A stretch of 13,846 bases of DNA from a virus (lineage: Duplodnaviria > Heunggongvirae > Uroviricota > Caudoviricetes), in IMG/VR virus record IMGVR_UViG_2713896897_000012, positions 1 to 13,846 of that record; one strand, written 5' to 3'. The notes below the pieces were generated by a model, which did no database searches, was not told where the DNA came from, and was given only the letters and a program-made list of their open reading frames with translations. This document shows, one piece after another, positions 9,688-9,722 of the stretch. The position numbers and the translations under genes are program-made. Each line of letters starts with the position of its first letter. Positions within the stretch are counted from its first letter, which is position 1.

Positions 9688-9719
9688 CCAAAAAAGAAGC
9701 GGGCCGCAATGACGGCCCG
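9688..9719 (-). terminator. Intrinsic-terminator-like hairpin plus U-tract between the chaperone extension and the tape measure gene
   Basis: 7-bp all-GC stem (9700-9706 pairing with 9713-9719, CGGGCCG/CGGCCCG) with a 6-nt loop, followed on the minus strand by CTTCTTTTTT (9699-9690), directly abutting the tape-measure Shine-Dalgarno GGAGGG. Confidence 0.4.
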
Positions 9720-9722
9720 GTG

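Follow-up and report, generated by a model that had tools for sequence, protein, structure and literature searches.

The spacer between the tail assembly chaperone and tape-measure genes of a Caudoviricetes virus (IMG/VR record IMGVR_UViG_2713896897_000012; the 13,846 nucleotides analysed, positions 1 to 13,846 of the record, are called the window here) holds a hairpin that lies in untranslated RNA, on the transcribed strand, and is built like a Rho-independent terminator. Judged from sequence comparison, this hairpin probably acts as an intrinsic terminator at the fixed 3' edge of a slot for accessory genes (morons), and it would be read through in lytic growth. In the window itself, the slot is empty.

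The plausible genes of the window all lie on the minus strand and are tightly packed (Table 1). According to PHROG matches, the tail genes follow in the order sheath, tube, a 147-aa ORF and a 597-aa tape measure, with baseplate and fibre genes thereafter. The 147-aa ORF is 54% identical (tblastn) to gp15 E/E' of Burkholderia phage BcepB1A, which is annotated as a chaperone frameshift pair. Its 0 frame reads AGT TTT TTC at 9967-9959, and the -1 frame runs on as FFRDRKELTF...KNQR*. The heptamer TTTTTTC is kept at the equivalent position across related loci, and the peptide encoded by the extension is 45-99% identical in 70+ of them. Between 13646 and 913, the 42-nt spacer with the hairpin is the only sizeable intergenic gap; at the remaining junctions, the genes overlap or are at most about 10 nt apart. 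Further downstream in the tail operon, a DUF2612 baseplate/fibre-associated gene, which is a single 684-nt CDS in an E. coli relative (L001), is split in the window at about 3797 into two minus-strand ORFs (3680-4048 and 3366-3689). The split corresponds to a 1-nt deletion in a C-run (ACCAAA-CCAAAT in the window, ACCAAACCCCAAT in L001) and may mean that the gene is a pseudogene, that the run is a slippage site or that the sequence contains an error.

Table 1. Coordinates of the features discussed in the text (positions of the window unless another sequence is named)
Feature	Position	Strand	Evidence or remark
Sheath gene	10729-12270	-	PHROG match
Tube gene	10276-10719	-	PHROG label "tail fiber protein"; Pfam E217_Gp32 in relatives marks it as tube
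Tail assembly chaperone ORF, 147 aa, 0 frame	9833-10276	-	ORF and translation; directly after sheath and tube
Slippery heptamer T_TTT_TTC for -1 frameshift	9959-9965	-	Sequence, both frames
-1 frame extension of chaperone, TAA at 9725-9723	9723-9958	-	Translation
Hairpin, 5' arm CGGGCCG	9713-9719	-	Sequence, terminator scan, fold
Loop TCATTG, or closing U.G pair with loop CATT	9707-9712	-	Sequence, fold
Hairpin, 3' arm CGGCCCG	9700-9706	-	Sequence, terminator scan, fold
Pyrimidine/T-tract CTTCTTTTTT	9690-9699	-	Sequence; 8 T in 10
Shine-Dalgarno GGAGGG of tape-measure gene	9684-9689	-	Sequence
Tape measure protein gene, 597 aa, ATG at 9680	7887-9680	-	ORF, PHROG tape-measure families, homologues
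Second intergenic hairpin, in 210-nt gap (703-912) upstream of DUF7424 gene	718-738	-	Terminator scan
DUF7424 lipoprotein gene at end of tail operon, MKKYLALCLTLALTGC...	1-702	-	Pfam DUF7424, E=5e-37
Q-like gene, STEC384 prophage (L077)	37281-37937		phrog_753 match
tR'-like terminator AAAACCCCGTCAATCAGATGGGGTTTTTT, STEC384 prophage (L077)	37171-37197	-	11-bp stem, T6; about 85 nt after Q-like gene

On the minus strand, the junction has the order ...CAG CGA TAA CAC CGGGCCG TCATTG CGGCCCG CTTCTTTTTT GGAGGG CAA ATG. The earlier note on this DNA, made from the sequence alone, had described a 7-bp GC stem with a 6-nt loop, followed by CTTCTTTTTT, located 3 nt past the stop of the frameshift product and abutting the Shine-Dalgarno (SD) sequence of the tape-measure gene. 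Every element of this description is correct. The GC-rich stem has seven G-C pairs, or eight pairs if the U.G pair closes and leaves a 4-nt loop, and a calculated dG of -15.0 kcal/mol. In the RNA it is followed by CUUCUUUUUU, which has 8 U in 10 positions and is interrupted at positions 1 and 4. On the transcribed strand, the hairpin is located in ribosome-free RNA: translation of the -1 product stops 3 nt before it, and most ribosomes leave at the 0-frame stop at 9833, 110 nt further upstream.

Terminator prediction, which had been suggested as a check, ranked the site at 9688-9722 first among the 24 sites that a lenient scan found in the window (15.7 +/- 3.7 sites in shuffles). Under a strict definition (a perfect stem of 6 or more bp, 5 or more of them GC pairs, a loop of 3-8 nt and 7 or more T in 10 nt), the hairpin is the sole site on both strands, and 4.7% of 300 dinucleotide shuffles hold any such site (27.7 kb). 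A plus-strand or bidirectional terminator was considered as well and rejected: the plus-strand copy is not followed by a T-tract, and there is no adjacent A-tract. Some observations count against a terminator at this site. Two C residues, at positions 1 and 4, interrupt the T-tract, whose T-weight of 2.51 is modest. With the discriminant formula in the form used here, d of the window hairpin is marginal, at about 1, and no clade member scores lower (range 1-39). The recent HUB model describes terminators as GC(U)7RU, with a bubble-edge GC at -11/-10 and RU at -2/-1 (preprint 10.64898/2026.05.29.728758). G9700-C9699 provide the GC edge of this motif in the window, but there is no purine-U distally, so that 9 of 11 positions agree (10 of 11 in the HK97 terminator).

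Relatives were collected from IMG/VR, from genome and metagenome scans, from E. coli genomes and from contigs that encode close tape-measure homologues, and 74 loci allowed the junction to be measured. Of these, 56 have neither a spacer nor a hairpin: the stop codon of the extension touches or overlaps the start of the tape-measure gene, mostly as ATGA, and the gap amounts to -4 to +12 nt. A spacer of at least 30 nt (40-44 nt) was found in the other 18 loci. These all belong to one enterobacterial prophage clade with the hosts E. coli, Salmonella enterica and Superficieibacter and with contractile tails of the BcepB1A/E217-like type, and all 18 have the hairpin. Tape measures of the clade are 68-100% identical to that of the window, those of the next relatives at most 37%. 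The scan of genome contigs gave 3 loci only, and the metagenome scan a single new clade member. DNA searches of phage collections, near and distant, gave no match, and a distant search of E. coli genomes yielded nothing further than two STEC genomes. Related prophages are present in only two of the complete E. coli genomes, STEC384 and STEC379 (from pork). Spacers from the annotated CRISPR arrays of about 60 complete E. coli genomes match the window at 10311-10347 (tube) and 9369-9402 (tape measure) with 97-100% identity.

Since the hairpin is absent from 56 of the 74 loci with the same tail machine, it stands outside the conserved logic of the tail module. The chaperone genes upstream of it have a wider distribution: the frameshift pair is homologous to the E/E' pair (gp15) of BcepB1A and the E/E+E' pair of P2, with a -1 slip on a T-rich heptamer. 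The BcepB1A chaperone is about as similar to relatives outside the enterobacterial clade (54% vs. 47-64%), and in these relatives the stop abuts or overlaps the tape-measure start and there is no hairpin. By this distribution, the hairpin arose as an innovation within the enterobacterial clade, in which stop-start coupling has been replaced with a spacer that holds the hairpin, a T-tract and an invariant GGAGG.

Conservation was analysed in the 10 distinct spacer sequences of the clade. Of the ten bases in the core pairs GGCCG/CGGCC, nine are invariant, and one sequence of the 10 deviates at the remaining base. This sole change in the core is a C-to-U exchange that retains a G.U pair; the 3' core CGGCC is invariant. 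The 5' flank and the exact sequence of the tail differ among the spacers, and the loop varies in length (4-6 nt) and sequence (TCATTG, TCAATG, TTAATA, TTATTT, TTTC, GCAA, AAGA, TTAT). Despite this drift in sequence, the 10 nt that follow the stem contain 6-8 T throughout the clade. The GGAGG of the SD sequence is invariant in all 10 spacers, and the dG of the hairpin ranges from -9.5 to -15 kcal/mol. The hairpin is part of the MFE fold of all 10 clade sequences when these are folded with 48 nt upstream and 0-60 nt downstream. For comparison, the same ten sequences have 43 four-fold sites within tape-measure codons 1-120; none of these sites is invariant (mean pairwise identity 0.42), and only 3 are identical in at least 9 of the 10. 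From this contrast between a nearly invariant stem core and its variable neighbourhood, we conclude that the hairpin is under selection. Taken alone, conservation of the stem would fit any role of a hairpin at the RNA level. Covariation was also considered as proof of the stem and was discarded: variation is confined to the terminal pairs, and the 3 double changes observed are not more than in shuffles. One of these double changes is from C-G to A-U at the base of the stem, in E. coli L001.

Cargo genes sit between the extension stop and a homologous hairpin in three configurations. The insert in Salmonella Teddington (L049/L050) comprises 1817 nt: the extension stop is followed by a hairpin, and the genes are one for a DUF7424 lipoprotein and, on the opposite strand, a Bro-N gene. 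Salmonella Lehrte (L080) has the DUF7424 gene alone, and the third locus (L054) has an insert of 345 nt that encodes a 79-aa DUF4236 protein with a hydrophobic C-terminus. In L049, L080 and L054 alike, the stop codon of the cargo lies 4-25 nt before a GGCCGC-loop-GCGGCC hairpin, after which come a T-rich tail, GGAGG and the start of the tape measure; each of these cargo genes has the downstream terminator that is characteristic of a moron. The hairpins of L049 and L054 are among the best-scored of the set (d about 39 by the same formula). Inserts have a GC content of 46-48%, compared to 51-53% in their flanks. The other characteristics of a moron are extra DNA between conserved genes, an accessory gene and a promoter of its own upstream of that gene. 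Extra DNA is present in all 18 clade loci, with a spacer of 40-44 nt in place of -4 to +12 nt. An accessory gene is present in L049/L050, L080 and L054, but the 42-nt spacer of the window contains no ORF. The element in the window is therefore the terminator of the slot and not a moron.

L049 is sister to a locus with an empty slot (L046) in both the tape-measure tree and the chaperone tree, which implies that the hairpin is older than the L049 insertion and that at least this insertion is derived. We also considered that the hairpin might have been imported with the DUF7424 cassette. This was rejected, as the hairpin at the 3' end of the cassette in the STEC384 prophage (L077) is unrelated and has no T-tract, and as the slot hairpin also flanks the unrelated cargo of L054 and many empty slots. 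Still, L049 and L080 have the same cassette and the same TTAT loop variant on different tape-measure backbones, so cassette and hairpin can also travel together as a block.

Some further features of the cargo-bearing loci can be described. The cargo of L054 (2220-2459) has a Gly/Arg-rich middle part and a hydrophobic C-terminal helix in addition to its DUF4236 assignment. Its size and position are similar to those of HK97 gp15, which is a small superinfection-exclusion protein of the inner membrane. Directly after the extension stop, L049 has an extra hairpin at 684-715 (ATATGGCACC-cgaaaa-GGTGCCATAT), which would serve as a terminator of the convergent Bro-N gene. L080 likewise has an extra hairpin in this place (1606-1640; GGGGC...GCCCC, then TTATTTTT). 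Due to these extra hairpins, the cargo is bracketed by hairpins on both sides in L049 and L080.

A moron with a downstream terminator has been described for gene 15 of HK97 (Juhala et al. 2000, as cited in PMC3594210). In the HK97 record (NC_002167), the GT product extends to 8145, gp15 ("moron product") occupies 8203-8391, a "terminator, putative" is annotated at 8398-8422, and the tape measure starts at 8435, which is 12 nt after the terminator. The junction reads TAA ctcac GACCCGCT atca AGCGGGT TTTTTTT atgggtgaaaat ATG. As in the clade, the slot is located between a G/GT-type chaperone frameshift pair and the tape-measure gene, and as in the window, a stop codon is followed by a few nucleotides, a GC hairpin, a T-run, a short SD region and the ATG of the tape measure. 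The cargo of the clade (a small membrane protein or a lipoprotein) is also comparable in kind to gp15. Unlike the phages of the clade, however, HK97 is a siphovirus, and the proteins are unrelated. HK022, which is without gene 15, has a gap of 19 nt and no hairpin. In the HK97/HK022 pair, the terminator is thus absent together with the cargo, whereas many cargo-free genomes of the clade, the window included, have kept the hairpin under selection, and homologous copies flank at least two unrelated cargos. The window hairpin is an element of a known kind, an intrinsic-terminator-like prophage hairpin, with the twist that it is resident independently of cargo.

The closest full-length relative is a prophage of E. 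coli STEC384; in the junction region, its sequence and that of the window are ~90% identical. Its early region is lambdoid (cI/cro-like, O/P-like, NinB/NinG), and a DUF1133 protein in the position of lambda Q matches phrog_753, "anti-termination protein Q-like" (E=4e-46). Between the strong, canonical tR'-like terminator that follows this gene (Table 1) and the holin gene lies a gene for a 298-aa protein with a weak PHROG match to "peptidase HslV family". The late genes after the terminator (holin, lysin, terminase, head, tail) are all on one strand. The late operon of lambda (PR'-tR', Q) is similar in that a Q gene in the canonical position is followed by a strong terminator and by lysis, head and tail genes on one strand; it differs in that the putative antiterminator of STEC384 is of the DUF1133/phrog_753 family and not lambda Q. 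In the lambda/HK97 arrangement, late transcription is carried out by a terminator-resistant polymerase, and Q-type antitermination overrides terminators. By analogy, a Q-modified polymerase would be expected to undergo little attenuation at the hairpin in lytic growth, although some attenuation or stabilisation of 3' ends may still take place. An arrangement of the lambda/HK97 type, in which internal terminators are tolerated, would also explain how L049 tolerates an antisense gene and two hairpins within its tail operon. The Q-like module was seen in one relative, the STEC384 prophage, and the phage of the window is known from 13.8 kb; presumably, termination and Q-type read-through do occur at the hairpin, and the phage of the window has the same regulatory module. 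The passages found in an ONT-cappable-seq paper on Pseudomonas phages (PMC10914365) say nothing specific on terminators within tail operons.

With a terminator at the edge of the slot, which we consider the probable function, ordinary RNA polymerase coming from upstream would transcribe the GC stem, pause on the U-tract and be released. Such unmodified polymerase could originate from a cargo promoter in the cargo-bearing relatives, or from spurious or read-in starts in the lysogen. With this polymerase released at the hairpin, the genes for tape measure and baseplate would stay unexpressed in the lysogen. In lytic growth, one long late transcript would be produced by a polymerase that is modified with the Q-like antiterminator and passes the hairpin. 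The tape measure would then be translated from its own invariant GGAGG, not via the ATGA stop-start coupling of the spacerless relatives. Besides the imperfect T-tract, it counts against this model that the window has no upstream cargo whose unmodified transcription the hairpin would need to stop.

The earlier note had proposed an attenuator that lowers the expression of the tape-measure and baseplate genes relative to sheath and tube. A fixed share of the late transcripts would then end at the hairpin, which would leave more mRNA for sheath, tube and chaperone than for tape measure and baseplate. Several observations agree with this idea: the terminator anatomy is found on the coding strand directly after high-copy genes, the downstream genes need read-through as there is no promoter-like site between the hairpin and the tape-measure gene, an imperfect U-tract would suit partial termination, and the hairpin is conserved even in cargo-free loci. 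Partial terminators within operons, located after high-copy structural genes, are known from T7 (T-phi, after the major capsid gene) and from phiX174. As in the window, a hairpin and U-tract follow abundant structural genes there, and essential downstream genes need read-through. The elements of T7 and phiX174 are integral to their families, however, whereas the hairpin of the clade is missing from most phages with this tail module and coincides with the cargo slot. A device for tail stoichiometry should be conserved with the structural module, and the 56 of 74 loci that do without the hairpin argue that it is not needed for this purpose. The hairpin is furthermore found only in a clade that is lambdoid and Q-bearing where checked, and Q would be expected to override terminators. 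In L049, the late transcript crosses an antisense gene and a second hairpin, which favours processive antitermination over tuned leakage. Of the attenuator claim, the terminator anatomy and the selection on the hairpin are thus upheld, while the purpose of adjusting sheath and tube against tape measure and baseplate is not, and we consider a stoichiometric attenuator unlikely.

A hairpin in this position could also act after transcription. Following an endonucleolytic cut in the U-rich tail, the stem would shield the mRNA of sheath, tube and chaperone from 3' exonucleases and mark a stabilised or processed 3' boundary. All clade members have a stable stem with a single-stranded U-rich segment after it, and conservation of the stem by itself fits stabilisation and termination equally. 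However, stabilisation leaves unexplained why T-richness after the stem is kept while the sequence drifts, and why cargo ends just upstream of the hairpin, as it does at the annotated terminator of HK97. The element is also not REP-like, i.e. dispersed over many intergenic sites. It is present in a single copy in the window, where the second intergenic hairpin is unrelated in sequence, and a search of positions 9400-10000 against Rfam 15 gave no match at E <= 1. We consider a stabiliser or processing boundary improbable.

A role in translation, in which hairpin and pyrimidine tract present the SD sequence, or in which pairing of the CU-rich tail with GGAGG damps translation of the tape measure, is more doubtful still. 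It is true that the spacer has put an independent, invariant GGAGG in place of stop-start coupling, and that partial pairing of the SD sequence with the CU-rich tail or with the first 60 nt of the tape-measure gene is predicted (mean P(unpaired) 0.03-0.36). These predicted pairings are weak, though, and their partners vary between clade sequences. In a fold of a 71-nt fragment (z = -1.4), tape-measure codons 2-4 pair with the 5' arm of the hairpin, and the SD sequence is sequestered by GCCC. We rejected this fold as a truncation artefact, as it is lost with longer context; neither Salmonella nor Superficieibacter has retained its partner sequence. In addition, supplying an SD sequence does not require a GC hairpin. 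Finally, a chance inverted repeat or a functionless, decaying relic might be suspected from the empty slot and the imperfect T-tract of the window, but it is hardly credible. Only ~5% of the shuffles contain such a site in their 27.7 kb, and a given 42-nt gap would hold one much more rarely; the near-invariance of the stem core, next to four-fold sites of which 0 of 43 are invariant, contradicts this reading.

A DUF7424 gene is also present in the window itself, at the end of the tail operon (Table 1). Its protein is 72% identical to the L049 cargo, and ~130 nt of upstream region are conserved wherever the cassette sits. From the position of the window copy at the operon end, this identity and the common upstream region, it follows that the DUF7424 cassette moves between slots. 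A sigma-70 consensus promoter was not found in the upstream region of the cassette, and no promoter was found in the 42-nt spacer of the window. The literature search returned no mention of DUF7424. The second intergenic hairpin of the window lies in the upstream region of this gene. It has counterparts in L077 (10829-10803) and L049 (1699-1718), with a short T-containing tail, and in every location of the cassette it precedes the DUF7424 start codon by ~30 nt. This places it in the presumed 5' leader of the cassette and not after a gene; it could be a terminator at the end of the late operon or a leader attenuator.

For the probable terminator at the 3' edge of the slot, which is also present in empty slots, a bolder reading can be considered. 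We tentatively suggest that it could be a resident "docking terminator", which would be under selection independently of cargo and would form a pre-adapted landing pad. As the hairpin would be ignored by the Q-modified polymerase, it would impose little cost on the phage. Cassettes that bring a promoter but no terminator (DUF7424, DUF4236) could then insert upstream of it without activating the tape-measure and baseplate genes in the lysogen. If true, a docking terminator could help explain why cargo has recurrently been acquired at this junction in phages that are unrelated, the siphovirus HK97 and the myovirus clade.

For this clade of contractile-tailed lambdoid prophages, the probable terminator marks a slot for accessory genes of the kind first defined by gene 15 of HK97. 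The natural alleles with empty and filled slots in E. coli and Salmonella provide a system in which terminators within late operons, antitermination and the capture of cargo may be studied, and the DUF7424 and DUF4236 proteins are flagged as candidate exclusion or defence factors expressed from the prophage.
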